A stretch of DNA of 64,000 bases from Acidimicrobiales bacterium (GCA_963662455.3 OZ224042.1:2446953-2510952); one strand, 5' to 3'. Counted from the stretch's first letter, positions 11,902 to 39,690 are shown. Notes: generated by a model not told the origin, from the letters alone. Translations and numbers: made by a program.

Positions 11902-11965
11902 TGTTGTGGGTCCTTGTACGATGTCCAGAAGTGTTTTGTGAGCCTGTAGTAGTTAGGATTTTTGG

Positions 11966-13648
11966 ATGTTCGATGAAATTCATGCTCTGCAGCCCGTCAT
12001 CCCCCCTAATCGTGGAAGGCTTTATTTACTATTTACATCTGTCGCGTTGGCTGTCGCGTTGGCGACTTCTTTGATTGTTGTTGTCCCACCCGAAGCGCAT
12101 GCTACAGAAGTGACTGTTCCTGCGGACTGGCCGCACATTCCCGACGGTGTGGGTTCTGGTGAGTCGTTCCGGTTGATGTTCAGCTCCTCACCGGTGACAT
12201 CCAACGACCTGAACATAAGTGCCTACAACACTTTGATACGCGCAGACGCCGGATCCAACCCGTACATACCCGACCACATAGCCAACGGTTACGCTGCGCT
12301 GGTAGCAACAGTCAACCACCCCAACATTCGTGACAACACCGGCACCAACGGCGCCGGTGTCCCCATATATTGGATGGAAGGCTCGAAGGTAGCTGACGAC
12401 TACAACGACTTCTACGACGGATCCTGGGACAACCCCAGAGACGTCAGAACAAGCACCGGCAAAGGACAGAACTTCGGCGACGTCGGCTTCCACTACCACG
12501 GCACCGGCACATTCTACCGGGGAAACGGAGCCCAGATAGGCGGCCTAACCCTCGACGATGTATGCGATGATGTAGGCAGGCGTTATCTCTGCGAAGGCGG
12601 CGAAGGCATCGGGATCGTATGCACCGGTCACGGTGACACCCAACCGGGATGCAGCTCGACCAGACGTCTGGGCCAAGACCTCATCACATGCAGTGTTACA
12701 CGCGATTACGGCTTCGACCGACGCGAATGCGGCCCCCTACAAGACCGGACAGCCATATTCGGGTTGTCGCCTGTGTTGACAGTCGATGACCCAGCAGCAC
12801 AATCAACAGCACCAACACCGACACTGACTCTCGCGGCAGACGTTGCCTCGGTCAGCGAAGGCGGCCGAGCAACGTTCACGATCACTGCCGACCCTGTGCC
12901 CTACAACGATGTCACAGTGAACGTGGGAACCGAACAAGAAATGGGAGAAGGCCTCGACTACATCGGCAGCGGAACCACCCAACAGGTCACCATCCCCGCC
13001 GGGCAGGCCACAGCCACCTGGACCGTGACCGCCTACAACGACGACCAACACCGAACCGACGGACGGATCCAAGCACACATCAAACCCGGCGACGGCTACA
13101 CACTGGGCGACCCGTTCAATATCAGCTTGGACCTGCTCGACAACGACCCGCCAACACCAGCACTGCAACCACCGTCGGTACCGCAACCAACAGCGGCACT
13201 GCAACCACAACCGCAGTCGGTGCTGCAACCACAACCGGCACCGACTCGAGCACCCGACCCGGCACCGACCCAAGCACCAGCACCGCAACCACAACCGGCA
13301 CCACAACCAACACCGGTACCGGTGTTGGAGCCTGTCGTCTTGTCGGTGTCAGACGCCCAAGCGACAGAAGGCCGAACCCTCGACTTCGTCATCACCTTGA
13401 ACCGGGCAGCACGAACACCCGTCGAGATCACCTACAGCACCCTGCGCGGAGAAGCCACCGACGACGACTACACCCACACCGTCGGCACCATCACCATCAA
13501 CGCCGGCGAAACCCGCAGAACCGTCCACATCCGAACAACAGCCGACGACATCAACGAACAACCAGAACGAATGATCCTCTACCTGGTCTCCGTCGACGGC
13601 GCCCAACCAGACCGACGCAGCGCCACCGGCACCATCAACAACAACTGA
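11966..13648 (+). CDS. secreted protein with two Calx-beta domains separated by a Pro/Gln-rich linker
   Basis: 560 aa with a signal/TM segment (LYLLFTSVALAVALATSLIVVV). The Calx-beta-like units are VSEGGRATFTITADP...VTIPAGQATATWTVTAYNDD and ATEGRTLDFVITLNRAA...ITINAGETRRTVHIRTTADD. The N-terminal ~270 aa are unassigned. Confidence 0.75.
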   Translation: MFDEIHALQPVIPPNRGRLYLLFTSVALAVALATSLIVVVPPEAHATEVTVPADWPHIPDGVGSGESFRLMFSSSPVTSNDLNISAYNTLIRADAGSNPYIPDHIANGYAALVATVNHPNIRDNTGTNGAGVPIYWMEGSKVADDYNDFYDGSWDNPRDVRTSTGKGQNFGDVGFHYHGTGTFYRGNGAQIGGLTLDDVCDDVGRRYLCEGGEGIGIVCTGHGDTQPGCSSTRRLGQDLITCSVTRDYGFDRRECGPLQDRTAIFGLSPVLTVDDPAAQSTAPTPTLTLAADVASVSEGGRATFTITADPVPYNDVTVNVGTEQEMGEGLDYIGSGTTQQVTIPAGQATATWTVTAYNDDQHRTDGRIQAHIKPGDGYTLGDPFNISLDLLDNDPPTPALQPPSVPQPTAALQPQPQSVLQPQPAPTRAPDPAPTQAPAPQPQPAPQPTPVPVLEPVVLSVSDAQATEGRTLDFVITLNRAARTPVEITYSTLRGEATDDDYTHTVGTITINAGETRRTVHIRTTADDINEQPERMILYLVSVDGAQPDRRSATGTINNN

Positions 13649-13896
13649 CCGAACAGAGTCACCAACACTGTCAACCCCCCGTCGACTGTGAAACCGACAC
13701 GAAGCGACCTCGTTTGATCAGAACTGTTCAACCCACCGGTCAAACCGCACCCGCCGCCGAACTTTCACCGTTCACATCGGACGAGGACGGGAGTGAAGAC
13801 ACCGGATTGACTTCCAGCGGCGGTTGCAAGAGGTTCGCCTCGGAGTAGCAGCACTTACGTCACAGATGGAATCCAGTTTATGATGAACCGGTAAGA

Positions 13897-14298
13897 CTAG
13901 GATTGGACCAACTCGATCAGCGTGCCAAACGAACCTTTGGGGTGGACAAAGGCCACAGTCGTGCCCCGTGACCCGGGTCGTGGCACTTTGTCTATAGGCG
14001 TTGCTCCAGCCGCGATCATCTGCGCAAGCGCATCGGCGCAATCATCGACGCGATAACCGACATGGTGTAACCCTTCGCCTCGTTTTTCGAGGAATTTGGC
14101 AACCGGAGAATCAGGACGCGTAGCTGCGGTCAGTTGGATGTAGCTGTCGGCCACCTTGATCAACGCCTCTTCCACACCGTCAGAATCAACAACCTCGCGG
14201 TGATGGACTTCCGCCCCGAAAGCTTGACGGTAGTAGGCAACCGCAGCCTCAATATCTTTGACCGCAATCGCAATGTGATCGATTTCTTTGAGTCGCAC
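13897..14298 (-). CDS. mce: methylmalonyl-CoA epimerase (VOC/glyoxalase fold)
   Basis: 133 aa. IDHIAIAVKDIEAAVAYY, GEGLHHVGYRVDD, VAFVHPK...GTLIELV. Confidence 0.85.
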   Translation of the reverse strand: MRLKEIDHIAIAVKDIEAAVAYYRQAFGAEVHHREVVDSDGVEEALIKVADSYIQLTAATRPDSPVAKFLEKRGEGLHHVGYRVDDCADALAQMIAAGATPIDKVPRPGSRGTTVAFVHPKGSFGTLIELVQS

Positions 14299-16968: not shown

Positions 16969-17056
16969 GGAGGGTTGCCAGAGCGGCCGAATGGGCACGC
17001 TTGGAAAGCGTGTGAGGTGCAAGCCTCCGTGGGTTCAAATCCCACACCCTCCGCCA
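16969..17056 (+). tRNA. tRNA-Ser (anticodon GGA), class II with long variable arm, CCA encoded
   Basis: Acceptor stem GGAGGGT/ACCCTCC. Anticodon stem-loop CACGC-TTGGAAA-GCGTG. T arm GTGGG-TTCAAAT-CCCAC. Discriminator G followed by CCA. Confidence 0.95.
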
Positions 17057-23708: not shown

Positions 23709-25097
23709 CTACCAGTAGACGGCGATGATCTCTACGTCCAAGAACCGCACCGGGGCGCCAACGCGCGTCGAGGTCGATACCCGACCCGGGGATCCGCTTG
23801 AACCTGGAAGGTCCAGCCCCGCGTCGAGCACGGCCGCCGTTCGCAGGTGACAGGCTGTCTCGGGTGAGGTCGTCGCGCTAAGTGCTGAGTCGACACGGCG
23901 AGTCACTTCCGCGAGGACTGAGCGACGGCCGTCAACTGTCTCGATCCAGCCAGTGGGCCACTCAGCGGCAGCGACCAAGTCCGTCACCTCAGCGGAGTCA
24001 GGTTCTCGGCCGTGGCTTTCCACCAGCATCGTGACGTAGCGCCGGAGCAAGGCGTCTCCCCCCTCTCCTGCGAGCGAATGTGGTTGTTGCGACGCATCTA
24101 CGGCCTCCTCCATCGCATGGAGGGCGGTCTCGCCCAGATCTTCGATCTGTTCGCCAAACACGGGGTGGATGTTGTGGAGGACATCCATGAGCTTGATTGG
24201 GTGCCACCGGTCTTGGAGGCCCTCGCCGCCAAGCCTGCAGAAGACGGTGAACCGGCTGCCTGAGAAAAGGACACGACGGATGTCTTTCCAGAAAAGGTCC
24301 CGTTCAGCGACACCGACCACGACAACATCGGAGAGCGCTGCGTCTCCCGGTTCGTCAAACTGGTCGAGGACATCACGGTGGACCAAAAACTCCTGATCAC
24401 CGATCTCCGCTACTCTGAAGTCGACGAGGGATCCGCGAATCGGAACGAGGTCGGCTAGAAGGCTCTCGAGCAGCCGGCCGATCGACCGCATCTCTGCCAG
24501 CTGGTCAACGTTCTCATGACTGAACAGCTGCAAGTTCTCTTCCAGGATCTCGCGGATGGTCGTGATGATTGCACTGACACGGAAGATCGGGTCTGCCTCG
24601 AGAACGACCTCAACTTCAATGAGATTTCCACGGCAGAGCGTGTGCGGATCGATGACATAGCCCGTAGAAAGGTGTGACTCGAGGTCCCGTTCGAGTTCGG
24701 AACGACTTCGCACGTTGGGGATTCCCGAGTTGTCGCGTGAACCAGCCAACCCGAGCCTTGGTTGTTCGAGGTCGTGGAGTTCTTTGAAGCTCGTCTGGAC
24801 GATCGCCTTGCGGAGCACTTGTGAGGTCCGCGACTGGGTCGCCTCGATCCGTGACTTGACCTCTGCTCTGGTGACCCCGAAACCACCGCCCATTGAGCCG
24901 CCGACTTCGCTGTTCAGTGAAGCGTTCTGACTCTCGCTAAACTCGGTCGCGATGGCTCCCTTACGGGAAGCAAGCAGGCTGTAGACGGATACCTCGTCGA
25001 GGTACACAAACTCGCGGGGAGTTCCCGGTCGTTCGCTCGCCTCTCGCGTCTGACCTCGTCGGTGCCGCCAGGCTCGAAGGCGCTGAAGGGGGCTCAT
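23709..25097 (-). CDS. hypothetical protein, partner of the upstream AAA+ ATPase
   Basis: 462 aa and soluble-looking. I recognise no motif. Its ATG overlaps the ATPase stop (ATGA at 25094-25097). Confidence 0.75.
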   Translation of the reverse strand: MSPLQRLRAWRHRRGQTREASERPGTPREFVYLDEVSVYSLLASRKGAIATEFSESQNASLNSEVGGSMGGGFGVTRAEVKSRIEATQSRTSQVLRKAIVQTSFKELHDLEQPRLGLAGSRDNSGIPNVRSRSELERDLESHLSTGYVIDPHTLCRGNLIEVEVVLEADPIFRVSAIITTIREILEENLQLFSHENVDQLAEMRSIGRLLESLLADLVPIRGSLVDFRVAEIGDQEFLVHRDVLDQFDEPGDAALSDVVVVGVAERDLFWKDIRRVLFSGSRFTVFCRLGGEGLQDRWHPIKLMDVLHNIHPVFGEQIEDLGETALHAMEEAVDASQQPHSLAGEGGDALLRRYVTMLVESHGREPDSAEVTDLVAAAEWPTGWIETVDGRRSVLAEVTRRVDSALSATTSPETACHLRTAAVLDAGLDLPGSSGSPGRVSTSTRVGAPVRFLDVEIIAVYW

Positions 25098-26275
25098 GCG
25101 GCAGACTTGGCCTTCGTGGACCGACTCCCGATACGCTCGCGCTGCCGCTCAACGCGCTCGAATCCACCGAGGTAGTCCTCAACGAAGATGGCGCTTCGGT
25201 CGTCCGCTACAGCGAGTAACGCTGACTCGCTCCAGATAGCTGCCAGCTCGGCCGAAGACCAGCCGTCCGTCTTGGCAGCCACGAACTCGTGCGGCAGCGG
25301 ATCCTGCGTCTCCAGGCCCCGAGCGGTCTTGATGAGGATGTCCAATCGGTCCTCCACGCTCGGAAGAGGAAACTCGATCTCCCAATCAAACCTCCCAGGT
25401 CGGCGGAGGGCGACATCCAAGTCCTGCGGCCGGTTGGTCGCGGCGATCACCACGACGTTGCTCGTCGAGCCAAAGCCATCCATCAGGGTAAGCAGCTGGG
25501 CCACCACTCGCCGGCTCGCTTCGTGAGCGTCGTCGTCCCGCTGGGCTGCCACGCTGTCGATCTCGTCGAAGAAGATAATGGCCCTCTCATCCTTCGCCGC
25601 AGCATCGAAGATACGTCGTAGGAGTTCTTCGCTTTGCCCATACCACTTGCTAAAAATTTCAGGCCCCGAGATCTCAAAGAACGATGCGTCCGCCTGGGCC
25701 GCAATGATCCGAGCCAACATCGTCTTGCCGGTACCCGGCGGGCCTGTAAAGAGCACGCCCTTGATTGCGCGTGCTCCGATCTTGGCCAATTCTGCTTGTC
25801 GCTCAAGCGGTAGCTCGATCAGCTCGCGTGCACGCTTCACTACAGAACTCAACCCACCGAAGTCGTCGAAGGTGAGCCGTTGATCAGAATTACCTTCGGT
25901 TCGGAATCGATTCACAACCTCCTCGTCGATCGCTGGCAGCTCAATGTACTTAATAGGTTCTTCTGAGAGGACGCGGATGACCCCTCGGACCTCCCCCGCC
26001 TCAACGGTGTTACCGACCTCATACTCAAGATCCGCTTGCGTTGGAACCTTCCGGTACCGACCGCTCGCCTCAATGACTGTGACATCGTCTAACTTGATCT
26101 TGACGACACCGACCCATAAGTCGTCAGGCCACGCGCTGGCATCGACCCGTTCCGCGCTTTGGCCGGGACCTTCACCCGAGATCATGATCACGTCATCGGC
26201 ATCGAAGCCATGCCCCGTCCTGGTCAAACCAACCGCTGTTGCCGTTACGGAGATCGAAGAACACCCTGTCAGCAC
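25094..26275 (-). CDS. classical-clade AAA+ ATPase (Cdc48/FtsH-like single AAA module) with a ~150-aa N-domain
   Basis: 393 aa. GVLFTGPPGTGKTMLA (Walker A), AIIFFDEIDS (Walker B), VIAATNRPQDLDVALRRPGRFD (second region of homology). The annotated start is a GTG, so the start is uncertain. Confidence 0.9.
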   Translation of the reverse strand: MLTGCSSISVTATAVGLTRTGHGFDADDVIMISGEGPGQSAERVDASAWPDDLWVGVVKIKLDDVTVIEASGRYRKVPTQADLEYEVGNTVEAGEVRGVIRVLSEEPIKYIELPAIDEEVVNRFRTEGNSDQRLTFDDFGGLSSVVKRARELIELPLERQAELAKIGARAIKGVLFTGPPGTGKTMLARIIAAQADASFFEISGPEIFSKWYGQSEELLRRIFDAAAKDERAIIFFDEIDSVAAQRDDDAHEASRRVVAQLLTLMDGFGSTSNVVVIAATNRPQDLDVALRRPGRFDWEIEFPLPSVEDRLDILIKTARGLETQDPLPHEFVAAKTDGWSSAELAAIWSESALLAVADDRSAIFVEDYLGGFERVERQRERIGSRSTKAKSAA

Positions 26276-26579: not shown

Positions 26580-27235
26580 ATGTCGAACTCGCTCGATCTC
26601 ATCGGCTTGAAGGCCGCGGCTGCCGAGTTCGCCGAGTCACTTCGCGACACGCCGATCCCCGAGTTGTTCGGCACAACGGACGGCAAGGCGCTGGGCACCT
26701 GGATCGAGGCGAATTTCAACGAGTTCCTCGCAGAGCGGCACGCGTACAGCCCTGGAAACGCGGCTCGCGGAATCGACTTCCCGGAACTGGAGGTTGATCT
26801 CAAGGCGACATTCATTAATCAACCCAGTCATCGTGCCCGTTCCGCGACGCGTCGCAGAAGATCTTCGGGCTGGGCTACGACCTGCTCGTGTTCGTGTACG
26901 AAAAGAACGACACACACGAGACCCAGTCTGCGGTGATCGATGTTCGCCACGCGCTGTTCATCGACCGGTCGAGAACCGGCGACTACCAGACGACGAGTGG
27001 AATCCTCGAGATACTCGACCGAGGCGGGAATATCGATGACCTCGTTGCCTTCATGGAGGACCGAAATCTGCCGTTAGACGAAATTGGCCGCGCGGCCTTG
27101 GCCGAACGAGTTCTCAGCGACCCCCCGACACAGGGCTACATCACGATCAGCAATGCCCTTCAGTGGCGGCTCCAGTACAACCACGCGATCAACAACGCAG
27201 GAGGGGTCGGCGGTGTCCAAGACCTCCTCTCGTAA
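26580..27235 (+). pseudogene. type II restriction endonuclease-like gene (PD-(D/E)xK) interrupted by a 1-nt frameshift
   Basis: From ATG 26580 the frame reads ...GIDFPELEVDLKATFINQ and then turns to Arg/Ser-rich nonsense. Frame -1 resumes as TQSSCPFRDASQKIFGLGYDLLVFVYEK... and runs to the stop at 27235. The shift maps to the C-run at 26823-26825. Confidence 0.6.
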
Positions 27236-28826
27236 GGAACTCGGCGACTTCCAAACACCTTGGGAGCTCGCGGTCGAGTGCACTCAAGTCCTAGCGACGA
27301 TCCAGCGCGGAACGCGCCGGGTGCTGGAACCGACGTGCGGTGAGGGGAGCTTCATGCTCGCTGCGGCCTCGGTCCTCGAGCCGTCCATCGAAATGTTGGG
27401 AGTGGAGATACAACCCAGCCATGCCGAAACCGCCCGCTGTCGACTCAATGGCTCTGACACCAGAGATGTTACGTGGCGAGTTGAGGTGGGCGATATGTTC
27501 CGGCACGACTTGGGCAAGCTCCAGTGGGAGACGGACGGGCCACTGCTGGTCCTCGGGAATCCGCCGTGGGTCACGTTGTCCGACCTCGGCGCGATGGACT
27601 CGATCCAGATCCCCGACCGCACCAACCTGCGTTCCGTTCGGGGGATAGATGCGCTTACGGGTGAGTCGAACTTCGACGTCGCCGAGTACATCTGGATGCG
27701 GCTCCTGACGGAATTGCGTCAACAGGAGCCTACGGTCGCGCTTCTTTGCAAGACTTCCGTCGCACGCCGGGTTCTCACGTTGGCAGCTCACCTGGATCTA
27801 CATGTGGCTGATTCGTTCCTGTGGCGGATCGACGCGAAGAAGTCGTTCGGGGTAGCAGTCGACGCCTGCCTCTTCGCTGTTCAACTCGATGGAGCAAGCC
27901 GCAACTACCGTTGCCAAGTCTTTGAGTCACTCGATGCGAGCCGTCCGACAAGCACCATGGGATTGGTGGGTGGGGCTCTCGTTGCCGATGTGGATGCTCA
28001 CGCCGTGGCTCGGCAATACGACGGGTCGTCGCCAGTGCAGTGGCGGCAAGGCGTCAAGCACGATTCAGCAGCCGTGATGGAGCTTCGCACTGACGAGGGC
28101 GGCAAGCTCCACAACGCGCTCGGCGAACCCGTCGAGGTCGAAGACGACTGGGTGTATCCGCTTCTCAAAGGTTCAGATGTGAACGCGGGCCGGCCCCCAG
28201 AACGTTACGTGGTCGTGACTCAGCGATCGCTGGCAGATGAGACGAGGAGCCTGCGACACACAGCACCCATGCTCTGGAGCTACTTGCAGACCCACGCTGA
28301 ACGGTTCGCTGCCCGCAAGTCGTCGATCTACCGAAACCGACCGGCCTTCTCGATGTTCGGCATCGGGCCGTACACATTCGCGCCGTGGAAGGTCGCAGTG
28401 TCGGGCCTCCACAAGACTCCTAGGTTCCATCTCGTAGGTCCGAGCGAGGGCCGGCCGGTCCTATTCGACGACACGTCGTACTTCCTGCCGTGCGAATCAG
28501 CGGCCGAGGCAGCCGTCCTTCTCAGTGCGCTGACGAGTGGAGCCGCAACCCTCCTCCTCAAGTCGTTGCTGTTCACTGACGCCAAGCGACCGGTGACGAA
28601 GAAACTGCTGCAGCGCATCGACCTCGCCGCCATTCTTCGCGACGACCGTGCCCGAGTCGAGAGGGGCGCGCAGGACGCTCTCGAAAAGGCCGGTCAGCAC
28701 CTGGATGCCAGGGCGATCACTCAAGAATCCGACCAACTCCTGCAGCAATGGAGCGGGACTCAGGACACCCCGCCACTATTCAGTGTCACCGACACTGCCC
28801 CACTCGAACCCGCCGCGTCAGCCTGA
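27213..28826 (+). CDS. gamma-class N6-adenine DNA methyltransferase (Eco57I/TaqI-like)
   Basis: Start taken as GTG 27213, preceded by GGAGGGG, and it overlaps the endonuclease gene end. GDFQTPWELA, motif I VLEPTCGEGSF, motif IV LVLGNPPWV. Confidence 0.85.
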   Translation: MSKTSSRKELGDFQTPWELAVECTQVLATIQRGTRRVLEPTCGEGSFMLAAASVLEPSIEMLGVEIQPSHAETARCRLNGSDTRDVTWRVEVGDMFRHDLGKLQWETDGPLLVLGNPPWVTLSDLGAMDSIQIPDRTNLRSVRGIDALTGESNFDVAEYIWMRLLTELRQQEPTVALLCKTSVARRVLTLAAHLDLHVADSFLWRIDAKKSFGVAVDACLFAVQLDGASRNYRCQVFESLDASRPTSTMGLVGGALVADVDAHAVARQYDGSSPVQWRQGVKHDSAAVMELRTDEGGKLHNALGEPVEVEDDWVYPLLKGSDVNAGRPPERYVVVTQRSLADETRSLRHTAPMLWSYLQTHAERFAARKSSIYRNRPAFSMFGIGPYTFAPWKVAVSGLHKTPRFHLVGPSEGRPVLFDDTSYFLPCESAAEAAVLLSALTSGAATLLLKSLLFTDAKRPVTKKLLQRIDLAAILRDDRARVERGAQDALEKAGQHLDARAITQESDQLLQQWSGTQDTPPLFSVTDTAPLEPAASA

Positions 28827-29283: not shown

Positions 29284-31851
29284 CTAGGAGTTTGATGTCT
29301 CTCTGGTGGCGGTCATCTCCATGCCGGTGACGGTTACCACCTTGACTGCAATTCGTCCTCGCTCGGGCGGGTCGAACGGTGCGGAGCGCATCGCGGTGAG
29401 GGCTTCCTTTTCGATGTCGTCAGCGTTCTTGCCCAACTCCTTCAGCAGCTTCTTGATCTGGCGATCGTTGGCAGCTCCGGGGAAATGGATGCGTCGGGCG
29501 TAGAAGCTCTCACCGTCATGGTCCGTGTCGAGCATCCAGCAGGCCACGTCGTCGGGGCCTCCATCGGAGGCGTTGCCGGTGGCCGGGTCGAAGGTGTCGT
29601 AACCGCTGACCTCCACGGCTATCTGGCCGCCGGGGCAGTCGCCAATGATGCGGATGTCAGGTTCCCCGACAATGACGAAGGCCTCGTGACCGGTTTCGGC
29701 TGACAGTTCGCGGATCATCAGGTCTCGGTTCATCTGCGCTCTCGCAACGGTGATACGGCCGACCTTCGCTGGAGCGTCGGCGGCGTACGCGTACGCGACC
29801 ACCAGCAGCACTTCGGCTCGCTCGTCGCTGTCGGTTATCTCTCGAGCTGCCTCGCGGATCATCTCGCCGGGCACGGTCACATCCTCGGCGGCGACCATGA
29901 CCGCAGCAACATGTTCCGCTGCGCCTCCGTCAATGGTGTAAGTGGCTTTCCATACAAGCAACTCGGAGTAGACCGGCCACGGTTCCAGAGCGCGGATGGT
30001 CATGTCGGCGCTGGCGCGTCCTCCGCTGATCGTGTGGTTCAACAGAGCCGCCTCCACAGCTTCGGAGAAATGGCCGTGAGCGACCACCATCTCATCGTCG
30101 GAACCTTCCAGGGGGATGACCGTCGCCCAGGGTTGCTCGCTCTCCACGGTCATCGGTGAGGTCACGCGAGTCACGCCACGTTTCTTGCGTGGCTGATCTA
30201 CGAGCAGGATTGGGTCAGGGTCAAGGTCGTAGGCCAAGACGCCGGCCGAGACTTGGGGGACGCGTTCGTAGACGAGTCCTTGGGCGGGGTCGTTTGCCCA
30301 TCCGCCCTCGGGTGGGGGAGCTTCGGGATTGCCGGAGAGTTGTGCTTCCAGGCGCGCGCCGTTTACCGAGTCAGCCAGTGTCCAGTAGGGGAAGGTCGCG
30401 GTTGAGAGCCGTTGGCGTGCGATTGACACGGCGACTGGCGAGGTGTCACAGGTAATCCAACGCCGCCCCCATTTCTCAGCGGCTATCGCAGTAGTGGCTC
30501 CACCGCACGTCGGGTCGAACACAAGGTCGCCAGGGTCAGTGGCCATGAGAACGCATCGCTCAATCACGCTGTCCGCTGTCTGCACTACGTAGCGTTTATC
30601 TGACGCGTAGGCCTGTTGGTGCCACATGTTGTTGATGCGCCGCCCAGGAACCTCGTTCTCGTATCGCTTCCAACGGAGCGCAGAACCCGGCCCGGCAGCG
30701 TCTAAGCGGTTTAGCTCCGCGAGACGGTCCATACCCTCCATTGATACACGCCACTGCTCACCCGCTGGACAGGTCCAGGCCTGCCCTCTCCAAGAATACG
30801 GGTCCGAGCGCCCTGTGGTTGAGGCACCAGGTGACGTGAGTGCCACGCGGCTATAGAGCCGCGAACCGTCAGGCAAGTGCGAATCTGGGTCATCCCTCTC
30901 TTCGGGAGTCAGAGCGCGGGTCTTCGCGTCTTCAAGTTCAACCATCGCGTAAGAACTCATATGCGCGACCTTCTCAGCGCGAGTGAGCGGTTCGTAGAGT
31001 TGGTGGTACTTGGACTGTCGTTTGTCCTTCGCGTACCAAAGCAGGAAATCTGCAACGCTGGGCAGCGTCTTGGACGATGAGCCGCTCGTGGTTGCAAAGG
31101 GGATGAGAGATACGCGGTTCTCTGCTCCGAACACTTCATCCAACAACAGTCCAACTCTCAGCACATTGTCGTCGCCGATCTGCATGAACAACGAACCCGT
31201 GTCGGCCAACAGTTCGCGCATCAGGATGAGTTTCTCGCGGGTTAGGTCCAAGTAGGAGTGAATGTTGCGTTCATAGGTGTCCCGGAAGGCGCGGATCGTA
31301 CGAGTGTCTAGCGGGCGGCCCTCGGCGGATTCGGGTGTCCTGTCCTTCTGATTGATAGATACCTGGAAGTTGGACTTGTAGCCCATCCCGTAGGGCGGGT
31401 CGAAGTAGACCATCTGGACTTTGCCCGTCATGTTCTCGCGTGCGAGCAGGGAGGCCATCACTCGGGCGGATTCTCCGTGTATGAGCCGGTTGGACCAGTT
31501 GGCTGCGTGCTGATACCACTCGTAGGCGGCGTCCGGGGAGGGCAGGCCGTTGAAGTCGCTGAAGAGTTGTGGCTGGTCGCCGCCGCCTTGGAGCAGTTTC
31601 ACGAAAGCGGCTGGGTGGACCTTCTCACGCACATACAGCGGATGCGCGGCGTGACCGTCTTGGTTGGCGGGTTGACGGTTCCACGCAAGGATGGGCTCGT
31701 CGTCCACCTCACGGGTCTGGGGCTGGTACAGGATCGGGCGACGGTCGGTTTCGCTCATCGTCTTGCTGGTCTGCTCAGTCGGCAGGTTGACGCGTTTGGC
31801 TGAGGGGTGCGTGTACTGGTCGGTGGTCTTGGCGCTGGCTCGTTTCGCCAT
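29284..31851 (-). CDS. type III-like DNA methyltransferase (Mod; beta-class N6A/N4C, DPPY) with long C-terminal extension
   Basis: Start taken at ATG 31851 (MAKRASAK...), which overlaps the Res stop (TGATG). Motif IV is VQMVYFDPPYGMGY. Motif I is GDLVFDPTCGGATTAIAAEKWGRRWITCD. Confidence 0.9.
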   Translation of the reverse strand: MAKRASAKTTDQYTHPSAKRVNLPTEQTSKTMSETDRRPILYQPQTREVDDEPILAWNRQPANQDGHAAHPLYVREKVHPAAFVKLLQGGGDQPQLFSDFNGLPSPDAAYEWYQHAANWSNRLIHGESARVMASLLARENMTGKVQMVYFDPPYGMGYKSNFQVSINQKDRTPESAEGRPLDTRTIRAFRDTYERNIHSYLDLTREKLILMRELLADTGSLFMQIGDDNVLRVGLLLDEVFGAENRVSLIPFATTSGSSSKTLPSVADFLLWYAKDKRQSKYHQLYEPLTRAEKVAHMSSYAMVELEDAKTRALTPEERDDPDSHLPDGSRLYSRVALTSPGASTTGRSDPYSWRGQAWTCPAGEQWRVSMEGMDRLAELNRLDAAGPGSALRWKRYENEVPGRRINNMWHQQAYASDKRYVVQTADSVIERCVLMATDPGDLVFDPTCGGATTAIAAEKWGRRWITCDTSPVAVSIARQRLSTATFPYWTLADSVNGARLEAQLSGNPEAPPPEGGWANDPAQGLVYERVPQVSAGVLAYDLDPDPILLVDQPRKKRGVTRVTSPMTVESEQPWATVIPLEGSDDEMVVAHGHFSEAVEAALLNHTISGGRASADMTIRALEPWPVYSELLVWKATYTIDGGAAEHVAAVMVAAEDVTVPGEMIREAAREITDSDERAEVLLVVAYAYAADAPAKVGRITVARAQMNRDLMIRELSAETGHEAFVIVGEPDIRIIGDCPGGQIAVEVSGYDTFDPATGNASDGGPDDVACWMLDTDHDGESFYARRIHFPGAANDRQIKKLLKELGKNADDIEKEALTAMRSAPFDPPERGRIAVKVVTVTGMEMTATRETSNS

Positions 31852-34800
31852 CACGCTGCTCCTTGCTCGGCGGGCTTTGGATGTTCGGCTCGGGCCACTC
31901 TGATCGCGGCGCTCAGATCCGCTGACAGGCCCTCGGGCTCGTCCAGTTCCACGAACGACCATCGCCGCAACCACATCGGTAACTGCAGCGATGACTGCAC
32001 TGCCGGTATCCACCGGTTCGTGATGGACTGTTTCTTGCGTTCGCTCTGGTCATCGGGCACGCCTTTGCACTCGATGATGAGATGCACAGCGTCGGCGTCC
32101 TCGTGTTCTGCAAAGAGGCGGGCCACAAAATCGGGTTCGTATCGGTGCCAGGTGCCTTCCCACAGGTAGGGAACGCTCCAATCGAGCCGGAAGTTGCGTG
32201 CCCAACTGGTCACGTCAGGGTGTTTGTCAAGCGCTCTGGCACAGGCCGCTTCAAAGTGCGAGTGGCAGGCCGCGATGTTCAGTTCCGAGTTCTTGGTGAT
32301 GTGGCGATCCGAGAGGCTGGTCTCATACCTGACGCTGGAAGTGTCCAACACTGCCGGATGCGCGAACGCTGCTACAAGCCGGTCTTGTGCGCCGTCCGTG
32401 GTCTCGCACGCGTCGTCTATCTCCTTGACGGCCTGGTCCAAGTTGCTTGACCCGAGTCCGTCGTAGTGAAATTCGTTGACCTCTGCAAGAAATGTCCAGA
32501 GCCTGACGATTCTGATGGCGTCGTAGAACAACAACCGTCGTCGCGCGCGCCACCCCTCGCCGTCGTCGGCCATCCTTTGGCTCCAGCGTCGCACGAGCCC
32601 GGCAGCGAGCCGGGTGCGGGTCTGCTGCTCACGCATGTTCGCTTCCGCACTGATGGTCCTGGTGTCTCCGACCGTCCCTGCCAGCACAGCTTCCTTGGCT
32701 CCGCGCGGCACCCATTCAATGACCCGCTCGGGGTTCAGCTGGAACCCGCCGGCTCCGGGTTCTGTGAGGTACTGCTCCACGTTGGGGAACTCGATTCGAT
32801 GGTTGCGTCGTCCAGAGACGCTGTGAACCCAATACCGGGGTTTCGGCGGTTCAGGGCTGTCTCCAGGGTGTTTGACCGGCATGAAATCAAACGGAACGCC
32901 GATGACCTCTGCATACTCCGCGACAAGCCTGCCTTCGTCGTCGTAGTTGTCATAGTTGGAGCGTCGCAGAGCACGGCCCGTGACCTGCTCGCACAACAAT
33001 TGCGTGGAGAACGCCCGGTATCCGAGGATGTGGGTGACGGTGCGGGTGTCCCATCCCTCCGTGAGCATCTGGACTGACACCACGCAACGAATGTGCTCAC
33101 CGAGACCCCCCGGCCTACCGACCGAGTTCAACGCGCCGCGCACGATGTCGCGGTCATCACGGTCGTCGCCGGGGAGCTTCAACCGGCCGGCTTGTGCCTT
33201 GACGGCTCCGCTGAGGCTGGCCTCCCCTTCAAGCTGGGAATGGACCAACAACGTGTGGACGCGTTCAGTCGGACCGTCGGCACGGTAGTTGGCGAACAGA
33301 TCACAGGCTCCCTCGTGATGCTCAAGTGAGCCATCGGGGCGCTTCTCCGACCATCCCGCGATGTGATCCGCGACAGCACTGGCATTGGCGATGTTGTTGG
33401 CCACCACGATGAATACCGGAGGTGTGGGCATCGTCTTGTCCGGATCATCCGGATGCATCCACTGGTTGAACTTCTGTTCATAACTGTTGTACAGCGCGGT
33501 GAGCGCACGGTTCAGTTCGGCCGGCACCGCACCGCGTCTGACGGTCTTGGGAGTCGTACTGGCGTAGAGGTTGCGCCACTTGACGCGCTCGCTCGCGGAA
33601 TCATCATCGACGGGCACCTGCGGAATCTTGACCAGACCGGATTCGATGCTGTCCATCAGCGGGAAGTCCGAGACCACCCAGGGGAACATCCGCTCCCGGC
33701 GGTCAGTGCCCTCAATAAAGATCGGCGTGGCGGAGAAGTCATAGACCGGGCCGAGCCGTTCCGCGTCGCGTAATCCCTCCAGAGCTCCAAACCAGATCGC
33801 TGCAGCCTTGACATCGTCGTCTTCTGCTGTGCGCCGACCGGCTTCGGGCAGATAGCAGTGGTGAGCTTCGTCGTTCAGCACGCACACCTTCGGTGCGCCC
33901 TGCCCCGTCGGGAACCCACGCAGCACCCGGTCGAGAACCGCCGACATGGATTCAAGCTCCGGGGTCCTCCCAGCTCGCAGCAGCTTCTTGGCGTCGCTCG
34001 ACGCAGCAGACAGCCGGTCCCGTCGCTGGAACGCTTGGAAGTTCAACACCTGGACCTTGACCGCTCCCAGCGCGCTGCGTTTGCTCTCCGGCAGCAACCG
34101 CATCTCGTCATAGACGTTCTCGGGGTGCGCCGGACGCAGCACCGCGAGACGCTCGCGGACAGTATGACCCGGAGTGATCGCCAAGAAGCAGGTGGTGTAT
34201 CGCCCATCACGGCGCTGCGACGCGGCCGCGTTGACGGCGTGCCAGGCAATGACCATACCCATCACCGCGGTCTTCCCCGTACCGGTGGCCATCCTCACCG
34301 CGAGACGGCTGATATCGCTGTTGTAGTCTCGGTTCGCCTCCGCCAAGTCTCGTCGAACGCCAGCGAGCACCCTGTCCCGGCTTGCGTTGGCCTCGGTCAG
34401 CCAGATGAGGGTCTCGGCCGCCTCCACCTGCGCGAAGAACAGCCTCGGGTCGTTGGCCTCGCTACGCCAATGCCACAAGAGTTGTCTCGTCGCGGAAGTC
34501 GCCCCCGGATAGTTCGCGTTCCTCCACCCCGACACTGCATCACGGATGCGGTTCACCAGCTCGTTCTGCTCCGCCGCGGTCCCCGTCCCCTGCATCCGCA
34601 ACTGCGTACCCCGCTCCTTGGGCACAATCACGAGCGCCTGGCTCAGCCGCCTCCCTTCGATCGCCACTCCCGTGGACGTATTGTCCTCCGCCAACTCCCA
34701 GTGACGCGAAGGCTCCTCATGAGGCCGATTCAGAACCGGTTGGCTGACATGGTCCAACGGCCGTGCAGCCGGCGCCAGGTTGCCTCTCTCCGCGGCCACC

Positions 34801-35039
34801 GAAACGTCGTCAACCGAGTCACCTGCAGTCGCCTCCGAGGTCACCGGGCTACACCGTCCGTCACGTTGCTGAATGGGGAAGTCGAACTCGCACAACGCGC
34901 TACAGGCTAGTAGCAGCCCGTGACACCGTGCGTGGTTTCGCCCTGCTGTAGTTACCGACAGGTCCACTTGGCCTCTTCGGTCGCAGACGACGCACTCGTG
35001 ACCGTCAACCGGTACGACTGACATCGCAACCCGCTTCAA
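31851..35039 (-). CDS. type III restriction Res-like SF2 helicase with C-terminal PD-(D/E)xK nuclease; true start probably ~34757-34799
   Basis: MATGTGKTAVMG (motif I), VLNDEAHHC (DEAH), TEGWDTRTV...QVTGRALRR (motif VI). The C-terminal YEPDFVAR...HLIIECKG is the nuclease motif. The family-typical N-terminus PVLNRPHEEPSRHWE begins ~95 codons into the ORF. Confidence 0.85.
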   Translation of the reverse strand: MKRVAMSVVPVDGHECVVCDRRGQVDLSVTTAGRNHARCHGLLLACSALCEFDFPIQQRDGRCSPVTSEATAGDSVDDVSVAAERGNLAPAARPLDHVSQPVLNRPHEEPSRHWELAEDNTSTGVAIEGRRLSQALVIVPKERGTQLRMQGTGTAAEQNELVNRIRDAVSGWRNANYPGATSATRQLLWHWRSEANDPRLFFAQVEAAETLIWLTEANASRDRVLAGVRRDLAEANRDYNSDISRLAVRMATGTGKTAVMGMVIAWHAVNAAASQRRDGRYTTCFLAITPGHTVRERLAVLRPAHPENVYDEMRLLPESKRSALGAVKVQVLNFQAFQRRDRLSAASSDAKKLLRAGRTPELESMSAVLDRVLRGFPTGQGAPKVCVLNDEAHHCYLPEAGRRTAEDDDVKAAAIWFGALEGLRDAERLGPVYDFSATPIFIEGTDRRERMFPWVVSDFPLMDSIESGLVKIPQVPVDDDSASERVKWRNLYASTTPKTVRRGAVPAELNRALTALYNSYEQKFNQWMHPDDPDKTMPTPPVFIVVANNIANASAVADHIAGWSEKRPDGSLEHHEGACDLFANYRADGPTERVHTLLVHSQLEGEASLSGAVKAQAGRLKLPGDDRDDRDIVRGALNSVGRPGGLGEHIRCVVSVQMLTEGWDTRTVTHILGYRAFSTQLLCEQVTGRALRRSNYDNYDDEGRLVAEYAEVIGVPFDFMPVKHPGDSPEPPKPRYWVHSVSGRRNHRIEFPNVEQYLTEPGAGGFQLNPERVIEWVPRGAKEAVLAGTVGDTRTISAEANMREQQTRTRLAAGLVRRWSQRMADDGEGWRARRRLLFYDAIRIVRLWTFLAEVNEFHYDGLGSSNLDQAVKEIDDACETTDGAQDRLVAAFAHPAVLDTSSVRYETSLSDRHITKNSELNIAACHSHFEAACARALDKHPDVTSWARNFRLDWSVPYLWEGTWHRYEPDFVARLFAEHEDADAVHLIIECKGVPDDQSERKKQSITNRWIPAVQSSLQLPMWLRRWSFVELDEPEGLSADLSAAIRVARAEHPKPAEQGAA

Positions 35040-35362: not shown

Positions 35363-37909
35363 ATGATGACTGCTAACAGGCTCACCGAAGCTTTCCGAGA
35401 GCTGGGCTATGAGAAAGCGCTGTGCCAGCGTCGCGTAGGTTCCCCTGCCAGCAAGGTAGTCGCCGATGTCGTGGCGTTCACCCAAGACGCCCCCCAAGAC
35501 CTACGAACTAGTGCGATAGCTGGCTTCACCGCCCCTGGAGACGATATCAGTGAGTTGCTGAGTGCCGCGCGTCTGTTGGCCACACCGTTTGCCTTGATCG
35601 AGCGGTTAAACGGCACTCTCGACTTGTATGAAGTCAAGTCAACGGGAGAATCGCCAAGCCGAATCCGAGGGCCGATCGCGCCAGCGCAGATTCGTGAATT
35701 GAGAAGTTCCAAGCTGGCAACCGAACTTGCTCCGAGGGCAATCCGCGCAGCCAAAGCGGGAATGCGCCAGTTGACGCTGTTCCCGATAGATGCGAGGCTG
35801 CTCGTAGAGGCACGCAGCAAATCAGTGGATTCGATTAGTGCGCGGATGAAACACTCGTTCCACCACGCGTTGGAGGAGAAGATTCAGCCTACGAGCGCAG
35901 CAAGACTCGTGATCGAGTCCCTTGCCGCGGCAATCGTCCGAGACAAGTACCAGCTAGAGCGCATCACTGGCGGCCGTATCGTTGATGGTGTATTGACACG
36001 GCACGGCGAGTATTTTGAAAACCTCGCAAGGTGGCAGAGCAAGCACCCTGAACTGGTTGAATCGACACTCCGCGAACTTGGGGACAACGTGGACTACTCG
36101 GCAATCGATGCGCGCACGATCAACGCTGTTTACGAGGAACTCTTTCTTACGTCGGAGCTACGCAGTGAATTTGGTATCTATCACACGGATCAACGGTTTG
36201 CATCGCGGATTCTTGACCATCTGCCGATCGAGGAAATCCCACCCGAAGATCGGTATGTCGTTGATCCTGCGTGCGGGGCGGGCAATCTCCTACTCGCCGC
36301 CCAAGAGCGGTTAGAGAACATTTCGCCAGGCCGATGGTCGGCCAGAACGACCCACGACTGGCTCAAGACCCACATGTACGGAGCGGATATTGAACCGATC
36401 GCGGTGGAGATCGCGAAGCTCTCTCTCTTAGTCTCGTCGTTGCCCCTGGGGAACTCATGGCAGATAGAACAGCGGGATTCCCTTGAGGAAACCCCCTGCT
36501 TTGGGTCGCCTCCTACGATCTGGGTGACTAATCCACCTTGGCAGCAGTCCCTGGGCTCAAATGACGAGCGGGCAATCCGGTTTCTTGACAGTGCCATCGG
36601 CCAGCTAGCTGATGGGGGATTGCTGGCGTGCATTCTACCCGCCTCTTGGTTGAGCTCAACTGGGCACAAGAAGTCGCGACTTGACGTCGACCGGAGATGC
36701 AGCGTGTTCGAGGTGTGGAGGCTACCCAGAGACCTGTTTCGCGAAGCCCGCCACCCATCCGCAGTGGTTTTTGCACAGAAACTGAGGACCGTCCAGCGCT
36801 CGAACTTTGCGTTCCGCTGGGTGACCGCATCCAAGGCGCACCGGGAGTCATTTCTCGACAGGGGTGCCGCGCAGTTCCAGTCCACCGAAATCCCTCCACT
36901 ACGTCGGGCGTTCACAGGCGGCCCCGTCGACGTTCTCGCAGCGTCAGGCATCACCGTGGAGAAAGTCGCGATTGTGACGTCAGGCCAGGTGCAAACTGGT
37001 AAGCCGTGTCCCGTTCCTTCGGGTGAGGGTACACCCGTCCTCGCACGCGGCACAAAGGCGCCGATCCACCGTTCCATCGGGCGTGAGTTGATCACCTGGG
37101 TGGCCGACCCAAGGGACAACTTCCGACTCGCTGATGGATGGGAGACCATCCTGGATGACAGTCCGAAACTGCTCGTTCAAGCCAACCGATTTCAGGACAA
37201 CGCTTGGCGGCTACGTCCGATCCTCGACACAACCGGAGTCCTCCCTTCCAACTCATGGCAGACGCTCTCTGGCAAACCGCAGACCATATGGGCGCTCAAT
37301 GCATTTTTGTCCACATCAATCGCATCGTGTTTTGTTCATTCTCACTCAACAACCGGACGAATCCGTGTCGATTTGCTAGAAGAAATCCCACTGCCAGCCA
37401 AATGGACTCAGCACTACGAGAAATTGTTCGCGGTACTGGGAGAGCAAATGGCCGAACCGACATCGGACCTCGCATCACTGGTCGACAAGGCAGAACTGTT
37501 GGCGTACCAAGCGTTCGAATTGGATGACGCTATGAAAGCGTCGATCCAACGGGTCATGGCCGAATACAAGGCGCCTGACGGAAGAGTCCGTTTCCCCGAG
37601 GTTGTGGAACGCGAAATTGGAGATGCGCGCCTCGAACCGTTTAGTCAGGCCCCCGGTACGGTGCTAGGCGTCGAACGCACATCGGTCCAGGTATGGGTGC
37701 TCGGAGGGCCCGATGACGGTTACACCGTCGATCTGCACGAAGGCATACCCGGATGGCTTCTCAAAAAGGATGCAACATTCGAGTTGACCGGCCACCCGGA
37801 CACAGGGCGTTACCGGTTCCATCGGTCCGCCCATCTCTCAGACTACGTAGCACTTGGAATGCACAACGGCCTCGACCCGGCCACAAGTGAACGCTCGAAT
37901 CCGCAGTAA
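35363..37909 (+). CDS. large gamma-class N6-adenine methyltransferase of type IIG/IIL or BREX-PglX-like architecture
   Basis: About 848 aa from ATG 35363. Motif I is YVVDPACGAGNLLLAAQ. Motif IV is IWVTNPPWQQS. About 300 aa precede the MTase core, including a possible D...(D/E)xK (ADVVAF ... LDLYEVKS). About 450 aa follow it and are TRD-like. Confidence 0.8.
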   Translation: MMTANRLTEAFRELGYEKALCQRRVGSPASKVVADVVAFTQDAPQDLRTSAIAGFTAPGDDISELLSAARLLATPFALIERLNGTLDLYEVKSTGESPSRIRGPIAPAQIRELRSSKLATELAPRAIRAAKAGMRQLTLFPIDARLLVEARSKSVDSISARMKHSFHHALEEKIQPTSAARLVIESLAAAIVRDKYQLERITGGRIVDGVLTRHGEYFENLARWQSKHPELVESTLRELGDNVDYSAIDARTINAVYEELFLTSELRSEFGIYHTDQRFASRILDHLPIEEIPPEDRYVVDPACGAGNLLLAAQERLENISPGRWSARTTHDWLKTHMYGADIEPIAVEIAKLSLLVSSLPLGNSWQIEQRDSLEETPCFGSPPTIWVTNPPWQQSLGSNDERAIRFLDSAIGQLADGGLLACILPASWLSSTGHKKSRLDVDRRCSVFEVWRLPRDLFREARHPSAVVFAQKLRTVQRSNFAFRWVTASKAHRESFLDRGAAQFQSTEIPPLRRAFTGGPVDVLAASGITVEKVAIVTSGQVQTGKPCPVPSGEGTPVLARGTKAPIHRSIGRELITWVADPRDNFRLADGWETILDDSPKLLVQANRFQDNAWRLRPILDTTGVLPSNSWQTLSGKPQTIWALNAFLSTSIASCFVHSHSTTGRIRVDLLEEIPLPAKWTQHYEKLFAVLGEQMAEPTSDLASLVDKAELLAYQAFELDDAMKASIQRVMAEYKAPDGRVRFPEVVEREIGDARLEPFSQAPGTVLGVERTSVQVWVLGGPDDGYTVDLHEGIPGWLLKKDATFELTGHPDTGRYRFHRSAHLSDYVALGMHNGLDPATSERSNPQ

Positions 37910-37927
37910 CGACTTACGGTTCCTGAG

Positions 37928-38884
37928 ATGTCTTCGGAAGTCCATTTCCTCAATGTCGGCCAAGCCGATGCCATTGTTACCATCGATGCGGGGTCCGCCC
38001 TGATCGTTGATTGTCCACACGCCGGTGTCGACCCAGCAGCAAGAGTGCTCGACAAAATAGACCTTGCAGAGTTCGATATCGTAGTTACCCACCAAGATCT
38101 CGATCACTGCGGCGGAATCCATGAACTTCTTCGAAAATATGGGAACGCTTCGACGACCCTCTACATGAATCCTGTAGCCCGACCAATTCCACCGGGACCC
38201 AAAGTAAGGACCGCACTTCTGGGGATCCTGTCAGCACTCGACGAGATCGGTGGAACTACAGAGCACGCGTTTGCGGGCAGAGTCGGAAGTATCGGAGGGA
38301 TCGAATGGTCGGTGTTGTCACCGCCTTACATCGAGGTCTTGGACGCTGCCTTGCTCGGAAGCTCGGCTAATAGGATCAATAGGACAAGTGCTGTCTTGGC
38401 GCTACAAGTTGGAGAGTACAGGTTCCTCATTCCGGGCGACATAGACGACACGGCTGTGAACTGGTTGCTCACCTCTGGTGCACAGCTATCAGCCGATGCA
38501 CTTCTGCTTCCTCATCACGGAGCAAAGCTCAAATTGATCGACCGGCTTCTCGATGCAGTGAAACCCAAATACGTCGTAATCAGTTCGGGTCGTCGGAAGA
38601 CGCACCCAAACATCTCAACACTGATGGCAGCTGCGTCATACGGCTGCCGCCTCATGTGCACCCAGGCAACTTTCCACTGCAACCCAGATCCGGTGAAACC
38701 CGATCATTGCGCAGGATCCATCGTCTTCACTCTGAGAGGCAAGTCCCTCTCAGTGGATCCGACACCGGGGGACCACCGCTCGAGAATCCAACAACTAACC
38801 AGCCCAGTCTGCCTCCGAGCACAATCGGGGCCGCCTGCAACCGATGTGCACAGGGGTTCCAAAACCGGTGACACCACTCAATGA
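37928..38884 (+). CDS. ComEC/Rec2-type metallo-beta-lactamase-fold hydrolase (stand-alone)
   Basis: 318 aa. VHFLNVGQADAIVT...LIVDC, VVTHQDLDHCGG (a variant of HxHxDH), FLIPGDID, LLLPHHGAK, KYVVISSG....HPN. It starts 18 nt after the methyltransferase stop. Confidence 0.85.
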   Translation: MSSEVHFLNVGQADAIVTIDAGSALIVDCPHAGVDPAARVLDKIDLAEFDIVVTHQDLDHCGGIHELLRKYGNASTTLYMNPVARPIPPGPKVRTALLGILSALDEIGGTTEHAFAGRVGSIGGIEWSVLSPPYIEVLDAALLGSSANRINRTSAVLALQVGEYRFLIPGDIDDTAVNWLLTSGAQLSADALLLPHHGAKLKLIDRLLDAVKPKYVVISSGRRKTHPNISTLMAAASYGCRLMCTQATFHCNPDPVKPDHCAGSIVFTLRGKSLSVDPTPGDHRSRIQQLTSPVCLRAQSGPPATDVHRGSKTGDTTQ

Positions 38885-38948
38885 ACCGCCTGTTGCCCAG
38901 TTCCGCCATACCACAGACTCCCATCAAACAGAGACACTTCGAGTCTAG

Positions 38949-39690
38949 ATGACCATTCAGAAACTTGTTCGAGAGTCCGAAGTGCTCGTCGAGGTACTAG
39001 ACCCTGTGGTTGAGGGCATCTCCGACTTGCAGCTGCAGGGGATTGCTGATTCGGCCTGGTACCGCCTTGGATCGGTAAATTCCCTGGTCCGAGATCAGGG
39101 TGGCGGAGCATTGGCAGCCACGCTGGCTCGCGGTTTGATCGAGCAGGCCGCATACTGGGACTGGGCGATCGCCACGGAAGTTGGCACGGATGGTCTTGAC
39201 ATCTCCAGGCCAAGCCCTGAAGACACTGGTGAATGATGGCGCGCATCACCGAGACAAGATCTCAAAGAGCCTCCAATCCGACGGAGTGCCGCAAAACCTG
39301 ATCAACGACCTCCTCGGACCAGCTACAGAAATCCCCGTCCCTGAACACGGGACCCCATCTCTCCCGGCTATCACAGAATTGCTGAATCTCGGCTACTCGA
39401 ACGCGTCTGAGGTCCGATCTGCCCCTGCGATGCACAGCGTCCTATCGCAGTTCGTGCACGCTACTCCGATCTCCAATTGGCACATCCGTCGGGACATTTT
39501 TCCTACGCTTACAGCGCCCGCTTTCGCCATCTCTTTGGAGTCCGCAGCCCGCGGTTTCGAGAGGATCGCGTTGATCACTCTCCTCCTTGCGGGGGTCAGC
39601 CGTGAGACTCTCGATGAGCCACTAAACGCGTTGAGCGAACGATGCGCACAGATCACAACGCTTGCCGCGCTATACCACTTCCTCGGATAG
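38949..39690 (+). CDS. hypothetical protein; either one gene with a +1 frameshift near 39205 or two overlapping ORFs (38949-39236 and 39181/39190-39690)
   Basis: Both frames are open across 39139-39236. The N-part ends ...AYWDWAIATEVGTDGLDIS and the C-part continues ...QALKTLVNDGAHHRDKISKSL. No family is recognised. Confidence 0.45.

Follow-up and report, generated by a model that had tools for sequence, protein, structure and literature searches.

A conserved two-gene module pairing a type IIG-like adenine methylase with a stand-alone ComEC-type metallo-beta-lactamase hydrolase in an Acidimicrobiales bacterium

Restriction makes use of nucleases of the PD-(D/E)xK, HNH, GIY-YIG, PLD and half-pipe folds. 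In type IIG and IIL enzymes such as BpuSI, MmeI and DrdV, an N-terminal domain, a helical spacer, a gamma-class methylase and a target-recognition region are joined in one chain. Here we describe a pair of genes in a 64,000-nucleotide (nt) stretch of DNA from an Acidimicrobiales bacterium (GCA_963662455.3 OZ224042.1:2446953-2510952), referred to below as the window. The larger protein of the pair shares the type IIG/IIL domain order, and the smaller is a metallo-beta-lactamase (MBL) hydrolase of the ComEC/Rec2 type. Unlike the type IIG and IIL enzymes, the large protein lacks conserved PD-(D/E)xK residues in its N-terminal domain and its family carries an extra C-terminal beta domain. Nor is this a single-gene system: a separate, conserved MBL gene is nearly always found downstream.

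The C-terminal MBL domain of ComEC/Rec2 has been described as a nuclease (Silale et al., 2021, as cited in PMC12799240). ComEC-like MBLs have been shown by experiment to be DNase effectors, with degradation of double-stranded DNA, in Hachiman, AVAST, Lamassu and defence-associated reverse transcriptase (DRT) systems, where they stay inactive until a trypsin-like partner protease cuts them (PMC12799240; bioRxiv 10.1101/2025.09.03.673762; PMC12642450). Long insertions over the active site keep these protease-activated MBLs latent (PMC12799240; 10.1101/2025.09.03.673762). With these effectors (HamM, Avs1a-associated, LmuA-type and RTasMBL) the small protein shares the ComEC-like MBL, the defence effector of those systems, but its partner is a methylase; there is no trypsin-like protease gene, and the model contains no evident inhibitory insertions. 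Type III restriction-modification (R-M) systems (Mod and Res) are likewise made of two genes, a methylase with target recognition and a separate, presumably dependent nuclease. In contrast to Res, the MBL has no helicase or ATPase motifs and has the MBL fold rather than PD-(D/E)xK; the methylase is of the N6_Mtase, gamma class, whereas the Mod encoded nearby in the window is of the N6_N4_Mtase class. BREX (bacteriophage exclusion) PglX/BrxX and Mad2 of MADS (methylation-associated defence system) share a related methylase core and overall fold.

The pair and the reading frame that follows it are listed here, with positions counted from the first letter of the window.

35363-37909, plus strand: N6-adenine methyltransferase, large subunit, gamma-class, type IIG-like domain order; 848 amino acids (aa), from the open reading frame (ORF) and its translation
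37928-38884, plus strand: ComEC-type MBL hydrolase, small subunit; 318 aa, beginning 18 nt past the methylase stop
38949-39236 and 39181-39690, plus strand: third reading frame, split between two different frames

These are the three ORFs that an earlier note on this DNA, made from the sequence alone, had placed in the region 35363-39690, and all are present on the plus strand. The methylase starts at the ATG at 35363, a mechanical ORF call beginning at a TTG at 35342, and a database protein of 848 aa (P0001) is 100% identical to it.

The methylase and the MBL form a real, conserved and rare two-gene module. By exact-protein look-up in seven lineages, with methylase identities from 63% to 29%, the MBL gene was found directly downstream in 7/7; at one of these loci it had been missed by the gene caller. 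A scan with the methylase alignment covered one genome per GTDB species (about 185,000 representatives). At least 24 species carry a full-length family methylase and, among the matches listed, 22 of the 24 have a full-length MBL directly downstream, another has a mere fragment of it and the last has none. They belong to Acidimicrobiia, Solirubrobacterales, Frankiaceae, Micromonospora, Spirillospora and Mycobacteriales, with one metagenome-assembled genome (MAG) of Chloroflexi. The linkage also holds when approached from the MBL. When metagenomes were scanned with the MBL as seed, a full-length family methylase lay upstream of all close relatives (best tblastn E about 1e-20 or better) whose contigs extend roughly 2 kb or further in that direction, whereas distant MBLs, which match the core only (aa 4-245), do not. 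The co-occurrence survey thus bears out the adjacency to which the earlier note had tied its proposal. That note had named, as what would speak against the pairing, a self-sufficient type IIG methylase whose MBL neighbour is not conserved in other genomes; we find neither half of this.

Residue counts given below refer to a family set of 40 non-redundant methylase-MBL loci. The two genes are adjacent or overlapping in these pairs, which range in GC content from 0.26 to 0.72 and come mostly from Actinomycetota, with the Chloroflexi MAG and metagenome contigs in addition. With starts called generously, the intergenic gaps run mostly from overlap to a few tens of nt, with a maximum of 266 nt. Full-length pairs on human-gut contigs (L111, L114 and L115) have a GC content of 0.26, indicating that the family extends beyond high-GC Actinomycetota. 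The two proteins diverge together: their pairwise identities correlate with r = 0.94 overall (Mantel test, 0 of 2000 permutations as high) and with r = 0.70 when the set is limited to pairs whose methylases are less than 45% identical. At the GTDB locus with the MBL fragment (L016, 5896-8940) the methylase is split into ORFs of 180 and 725 aa and the MBL is reduced to a remnant of 122 aa, so that both genes appear to have decayed together.

We asked if a third gene belongs to the module by grouping into families every ORF found up to 3.5 kb to either side of the pair at the 40 loci. Each of these families is limited to 4 loci or fewer, indicating that the module consists of exactly two genes and that the third gene of the window is a bystander. 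The earlier note had listed that gene together with the pair; as a part of the module it is rejected, a homologue of it lying beside the pair only in a 90%-identical relative. The note's suspicion of a frameshift in it was justified. A homologue of 263 aa (P0166) aligns across the junction of the two frames, and the gene is therefore a frameshifted copy of an uncharacterised protein of about 250-260 aa. Its conservation is mosaic: the first ~84 residues share 70-92% identity with the N-termini of proteins that range widely in length, from 150 to 431 aa, whereas the remainder and its homologues agree at only about 50% of positions.

Homologues of the large protein number 85 at E = 0 and reach down to 28% identity. 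Its AlphaFold2 model has a predicted local distance difference test (pLDDT) score of 87.9 and a predicted template-modelling (pTM) score of 0.88. In a Foldseek search of the PDB the top match is BpuSI (~920 aligned columns), followed by CamA, M.BseCI, BrxX/PglX, DrdV and M.TaqI. Pfam N6_Mtase matches at E 6e-13; MmeI_Mtase and Eco57I match 35/35 family members and are weaker than N6_Mtase in the window protein. The chain divides as follows.

35363-35755, plus strand: N-terminal alpha/beta domain, aa 1-131; mean pairwise identity 0.25
35750-35800, plus strand: conserved low-confidence loop, aa 130-146; mean pairwise identity 0.42, pLDDT ~63
35795-36097, plus strand: helical spacer, four long helices in the model, aa 145-245; mean pairwise identity 0.25
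36098-36832, plus strand: methyltransferase catalytic domain, aa 246-490; mean pairwise identity 0.40
36833-37582, plus strand: target-recognition region, aa 491-740; mean pairwise identity 0.20 (491-600) and 0.27 (601-740)
37631-37828, plus strand: C-terminal beta-rich domain, aa 757-822; mean pairwise identity 0.28

The methylase looks catalytically competent, judging from its motifs. The DPACGAGN and NPPW sequences picked out in the earlier note lie at aa 301-308 and 390-393. They correspond to motif I (D301-x-x-C-G-x-G) and motif IV (N390-P-P-W), in which D301, C304, G305, G307, N390, P391 and P392 are invariant in 40/40. Just after the N-terminal domain, the loop at aa 130-146 (key residues K131, in 37/40, Q136, L139 and F140) is as well conserved as the methylase core and is a candidate docking or regulatory element. 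The beta-rich C-terminal domain has its strands at 760-818 in the model, with F806 present in 38/40.

The target-recognition region is the variable part of the protein. Residues 491-600 evolve fastest and are the least conserved in the family alignment, and in 19 of 29 closely related pairs this region is the most diverged; for L009 and L027 its identity is 0.77, compared with 0.93-0.94 elsewhere. TaqI_C matches it weakly in 5/35 members, and the Foldseek matches to BpuSI, CamA, M.BseCI and M.TaqI extend over it. Such variability is consistent with a diversifying sequence specificity.

The N-terminal domain raises the question whether the large protein still carries a nuclease of its own. In the model, the order of elements (helix, three strands, helix, strands) resembles the restriction-endonuclease core. 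The earlier note had tentatively seen a nuclease motif here; this did not hold up, as no conserved D...(D/E)xK catalytic set is present in aa 1-131 among the 40 members and neither Pfam nor the PDB gave a sequence match. Position 35, where strand 2 begins, holds D in 25/40 and N, G, T, S or E in the others, and strand 3 reads T-S/A-x in place of (D/E)xK. The residues that stand out are D46 and T49, each in 34/40. A profile of the domain found no significant match among PDB sequences (best E 0.36) or in Pfam, HSDR_N_2 appearing at E 0.11 in 1 of 17 members. Among 1.84 billion representative proteins the domain was found 26 times, always as the N-terminus of a family member or of a fragment of one. 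We infer from these observations and the model that the domain is probably a degenerate, nuclease-like one.

An alternative is that the N-terminal domain is a nuclease which has diverged and yet is active, so that the large protein would be a type IIG enzyme sufficient in itself and the MBL an accessory which degrades the cut DNA. The whole-chain match to BpuSI, the order of helices and strands in the domain, the conservation of D46 and K131 and the faint HSDR_N_2 match in one member would all suit such an enzyme. It would, however, have to cut with a variable position 35 and an altered strand 3, and with a domain for which the profile searches gave no significant match among PDB sequences or in Pfam; moreover, the near-obligate MBL partner argues against self-sufficiency. 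We consider this explanation highly unlikely.

The small protein is a ComEC-type MBL of two parts.

37928-38647, plus strand: MBL core, metal ligands all intact; no signal peptide and no membrane segment
38648-38815, plus strand: C-terminal extension with four cysteines, C244, C251, C261 and C295

The assignment made in the earlier note, a ComEC-type MBL of 318 aa spaced 18 nt from the methylase, is confirmed by three lines of evidence. NCBIfam TIGR00361 matches at E 3e-15 (55 bits, with a cut-off of 190), over model positions 441-647 only, which is the C-terminal MBL part. The ComEC MBL domain 9ic4 in the PDB matches by sequence at E 1.7e-9, with the match stopping at aa 225, and is found by Foldseek at E 9e-18 with a TM score of 0.80, using an AlphaFold2 model with a pLDDT of 85.7. 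Shared with this domain are the H-x-D-x-D-H, N-x-x-S, G-D and P-H-H-G motifs. The fold neighbours also include Pce (phosphorylcholine esterase) and RNase J/CPSF73. D28, H55, D59, H60, N151, D171, H196 and H197 are invariant in 40/40, and H226 is present in 39/40; with its metal ligands conserved in this way, the protein looks catalytically competent. The HQDLDH sequence at aa 55-60 had been called a variant metal motif. It is the normal ComEC form: the counterpart in 9ic4 is HPDADH, and position 57 is D in 25/40 and H in 14/40 of the family. The motif as a sign of inactivation is accordingly rejected.

The family MBL differs from ComEC/Rec2 in being a stand-alone protein of 318 aa, with no membrane channel domain and no N-terminal OB/DUF4131 domain. 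It adds the four-cysteine extension and is linked to a methylase rather than to competence genes. All four cysteines are invariant in 40/40, and their conservation falls below 90% when five outgroup MBLs are added. This family-specific invariance suggests that the cluster is probably a structural zinc site. The lack of a signal peptide or membrane segment indicates that the MBL acts in the cytoplasm, unlike the ComEC domain. In the AlphaFold2 model the active site is not covered by long disordered insertions.

Separate adjacent genes are also what one finds in type IIP systems, and the pair could be a classical type II system, in which the MBL works on its own as an endonuclease specific for the site that the methylase also reads, and does not bind to the methylase. 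The four-cysteine extension could then bind DNA, and the type IIP methylases M.TaqI and M.BseCI are among the fold matches of the large protein. Type II endonucleases of different specificities are usually little alike. The MBL, by contrast, shows fairly even conservation and diverges in step with the methylase, and the ComEC-like MBLs studied to date cut DNA non-specifically. A classical type II arrangement would also leave the N-terminal domain, the conserved loop and the C-terminal domain of the methylase with no role. We think it unlikely.

The relatives of the two proteins raise another question, whether DNA is cut at all. BREX does not degrade DNA, and as BrxX/PglX resemble the large protein in fold, the module could exclude phages in a BREX-like manner without restriction. 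Alternatively, the substrate of the MBL could be RNA, a nucleotide signal or a phosphodiester of the cell envelope, given that Pce and RNase J/CPSF73 are among its fold neighbours. Against this, the best match of the MBL by both sequence and fold is the ComEC nuclease domain, and its lack of a signal peptide makes an envelope substrate unlikely. Neither PglZ, BrxC nor any other BREX gene is present in the neighbourhood of the pair in the window or recurs in the flanks of the 40 loci. An explanation of this kind has, in our view, only a small chance of being right. The absence of a PglZ or BrxC partner had been pointed out in the earlier note and is borne out by the library scans of the window and the flank clustering. 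Other mad genes are likewise missing beside the pair, in the window and in the flanks of the 40 loci.

Profile libraries place both proteins at the level of their superfamilies. The best PADLOC model for the methylase is mad2 (E 6e-21 for the window protein, 7e-30 for the best member), covering the methylase core only, and the PADLOC type IIG models too match the core only. The NCBIfam models for PglX score far below their cut-offs (NF033451, 32.8 bits with a cut-off of 400; NF033452, 23.8 with 500), as does that for MAD2 (NF047738, 22.5 bits with a cut-off of 720). The description of the large protein as PglX-like therefore stands for its fold and layout and fails for family membership, the BREX PglX models reaching 24-33 bits where 400-500 are required. 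For the MBL, the PADLOC effector models RTasMBL, LmuA and Avs1a match at E 1e-8 to 1e-14; in NCBIfam, Avs1a scores 35.7 bits with a cut-off of 420 and the 6A-MBL model 17.3 with 220. Membership in the PADLOC candidate PDC-M48 is unsupported: the MBL matches are weak and at superfamily level, and no matching A-gene is among the methylase matches listed. Neither protein was matched beyond superfamily level in PADLOC (2023), no model in NCBIfam (June 2026) reaches its cut-off, and none in PADLOC, NCBIfam or Pfam describes the pairing. In public records the genes appear merely as 'N-6 DNA methylase' and as 'MBL fold metallo-hydrolase / ComEC/Rec2 family competence protein'. In the full-text literature, with most subscription journals outside the coverage, we found no description of a ComEC-type MBL paired with a type IIG-like methylase.

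A different cluster that also joins a methylase to a ComEC-type MBL occurs in Bacteroidota, at L042 (5911-10916), L044, L047 and L076. It consists of four genes, for a mad2-like N6 methylase of 432 aa, a double-GHKL ATPase of 692 aa, a protein of 216 aa without assignment and an MBL of 339 aa, and is kept at 33-66% identity across the four loci.

The flanks of the pair differ between loci and are of the kind found in mobile and defence regions. They contain transposases, an integrase with RepSA and a ScoMcrA-type HNH protein, and a TrwC relaxase with a serine recombinase; elsewhere they hold a type I R-M system, PIN and HepT-type toxin genes, and Abi_C. On one Acidimicrobiales contig (L003), the pair lies between direct repeats of ~430 nt (7342-7770 and 11932-12380) that are 90-92% identical. 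A third, weaker copy is found at 6954-7316, and each repeat encodes a small ORF. These repeats may be the trace of a cassette insertion or excision. Searches of plasmids, phages and IMG/VR returned no family member, only distant stand-alone ComEC-like MBLs and generic methylase domains.

Such contexts bear on whether the module serves defence. It might instead combine an epigenetic or housekeeping methylase with a nuclease that processes DNA in uptake, repair or recombination, or be a selfish addiction module. The MBL is annotated publicly as a ComEC/Rec2 family competence protein, and viral contigs yielded no member of the family, both of which would fit. Against such a role, the MBL lacks the channel and membrane domains of ComEC, the module is rare and patchily distributed across phyla, in mobile and defence contexts, and the target-recognition region is variable. 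We regard such functions as quite improbable.

The activity of ComEC-like MBLs in other defence systems suggests a further alternative. When unleashed, these proteins act as abortive-infection DNases, and here the methylase could restrain a toxic DNase until infection. Conversely, the methylase could mark DNA for the MBL; the joint action of a methylase and a modification-dependent nuclease has been proposed for systems such as Ambrosia. The Bacteroidota cluster, in which a methylase and GHKL ATPases accompany an MBL, would also suit an explanation of this kind. But a module of two genes has no sensor, kinase, protease or regulator, and a methyl-dependent nuclease beside a constitutively expressed methylase would be lethal to the host. 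Of the alternatives set out here, methylation-directed or abortive action seems to us the least probable, and very unlikely.

The reading that we favour, and to which we give about an even chance, is that the module is a self-contained, horizontally mobile two-gene R-M-like defence system in which an MBL DNase acting in trans replaces a lost built-in nuclease. The large protein would read the DNA sequence through its variable target-recognition region and methylate adenine in host DNA. The small protein would be a cytoplasmic ComEC-type binuclear-metal DNase that cleaves in trans and serves as the restriction arm, most likely in complex with the large protein. Wherever its sites on incoming DNA are unmethylated, the large protein would recruit or license the MBL to cut, and methylated host DNA would be spared. 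Candidate contact surfaces are the loop at 130-146, the presumably dead N-terminal domain and the cysteine cluster. A more specific version of this proposal, which we hold tentatively and at somewhat less than an even chance, makes the MBL a further nuclease fold of restriction. A type IIG-like enzyme would have lost its nuclease and kept the dead domain and the loop as a docking platform, from which it licenses a non-specific ComEC-type DNase only at unmethylated targets. The nuclease would then be controlled by a partner that reads methylation, not by proteolysis.

Several points weigh against this reading. The module is known here from sequences and models alone. Known defence MBLs need a protease and none is encoded here, nor is a regulator, so the restraint of a non-specific DNase is left unexplained. 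The likeness of the N-terminal domain to a nuclease fold rests on the order of its secondary structure and on a whole-chain match to BpuSI with a TM score of 0.32, and the conservation of D46 and T49 could reflect some activity of that domain. Co-divergence is expected for any two tightly linked genes. At one locus in an Actinomycetota MAG (L034, 5863-9524), an intact methylase is followed by a Cupin_8 (JmjC-like) ORF of 315 aa at the position of the MBL. The absence of family members from viral contigs, plasmids and phages neither proves nor disproves a defence function.

In the window itself, the pair stands at the end of a group of genes that begins at a tRNA.

16969-17056: tRNA-Ser, start of the presumed island
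23709-26275, minus strand: DUF6414 plus AAA-ATPase gene pair
27084-28826, plus strand: type II-like N6 methylase, upstream of the pair
29284-32013, minus strand: Mod of a type III-like system, N6_N4_Mtase class
31851-35039, minus strand: Res-like BPTD_3080-family endonuclease, 1062 aa, of the same type III-like system as Mod

A defence-type island of about 22 kb appears to begin at the tRNA-Ser region. The tRNA is followed by a DUF4143/AAA_14 ATPase and then by a helix-turn-helix (HTH) plus IrrE/M78 regulator; the island ends with the pair and also holds the type II methylase and the type III-like R-M system. Three methylases, that of the pair included, are thus found within 11 kb of the window. 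A repeat of the 3' end of the tRNA-Ser, sought as the boundary of the island, was not found. The earlier note had stated that no Res-type partner is present, and this needs correction, as the Res-like gene lies directly upstream of the pair. As a partner of the module this gene is rejected, since it is not conserved beside the pair at other loci; together with Mod it is a separate, neighbouring system. Apart from these genes, positions 13001-14000, inside an ORF at 11966-13648, have a GC skew of -0.21 and an AT skew of +0.36, and may be a repetitive or low-complexity coding region.

Judged by its sequences, the module is best classed as a restriction-modification variant in which a putative MBL-fold DNase replaces the usual nuclease. 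Under their current labels, 'N-6 DNA methylase' and 'ComEC/Rec2 competence protein', the genes are missed by defence finders, and competence may be wrongly inferred for genomes that carry them. If the proposal is correct, the module would bring to restriction-modification a nuclease fold and an arrangement of subunits that are both new, would be a clear natural case of a built-in nuclease replaced in trans, and would reveal a second control of ComEC-type DNase effectors beside activation by proteases. A family this compact, at ~3.5 kb and with a variable recognition region, could supply new sequence-specific methylases and cutters.

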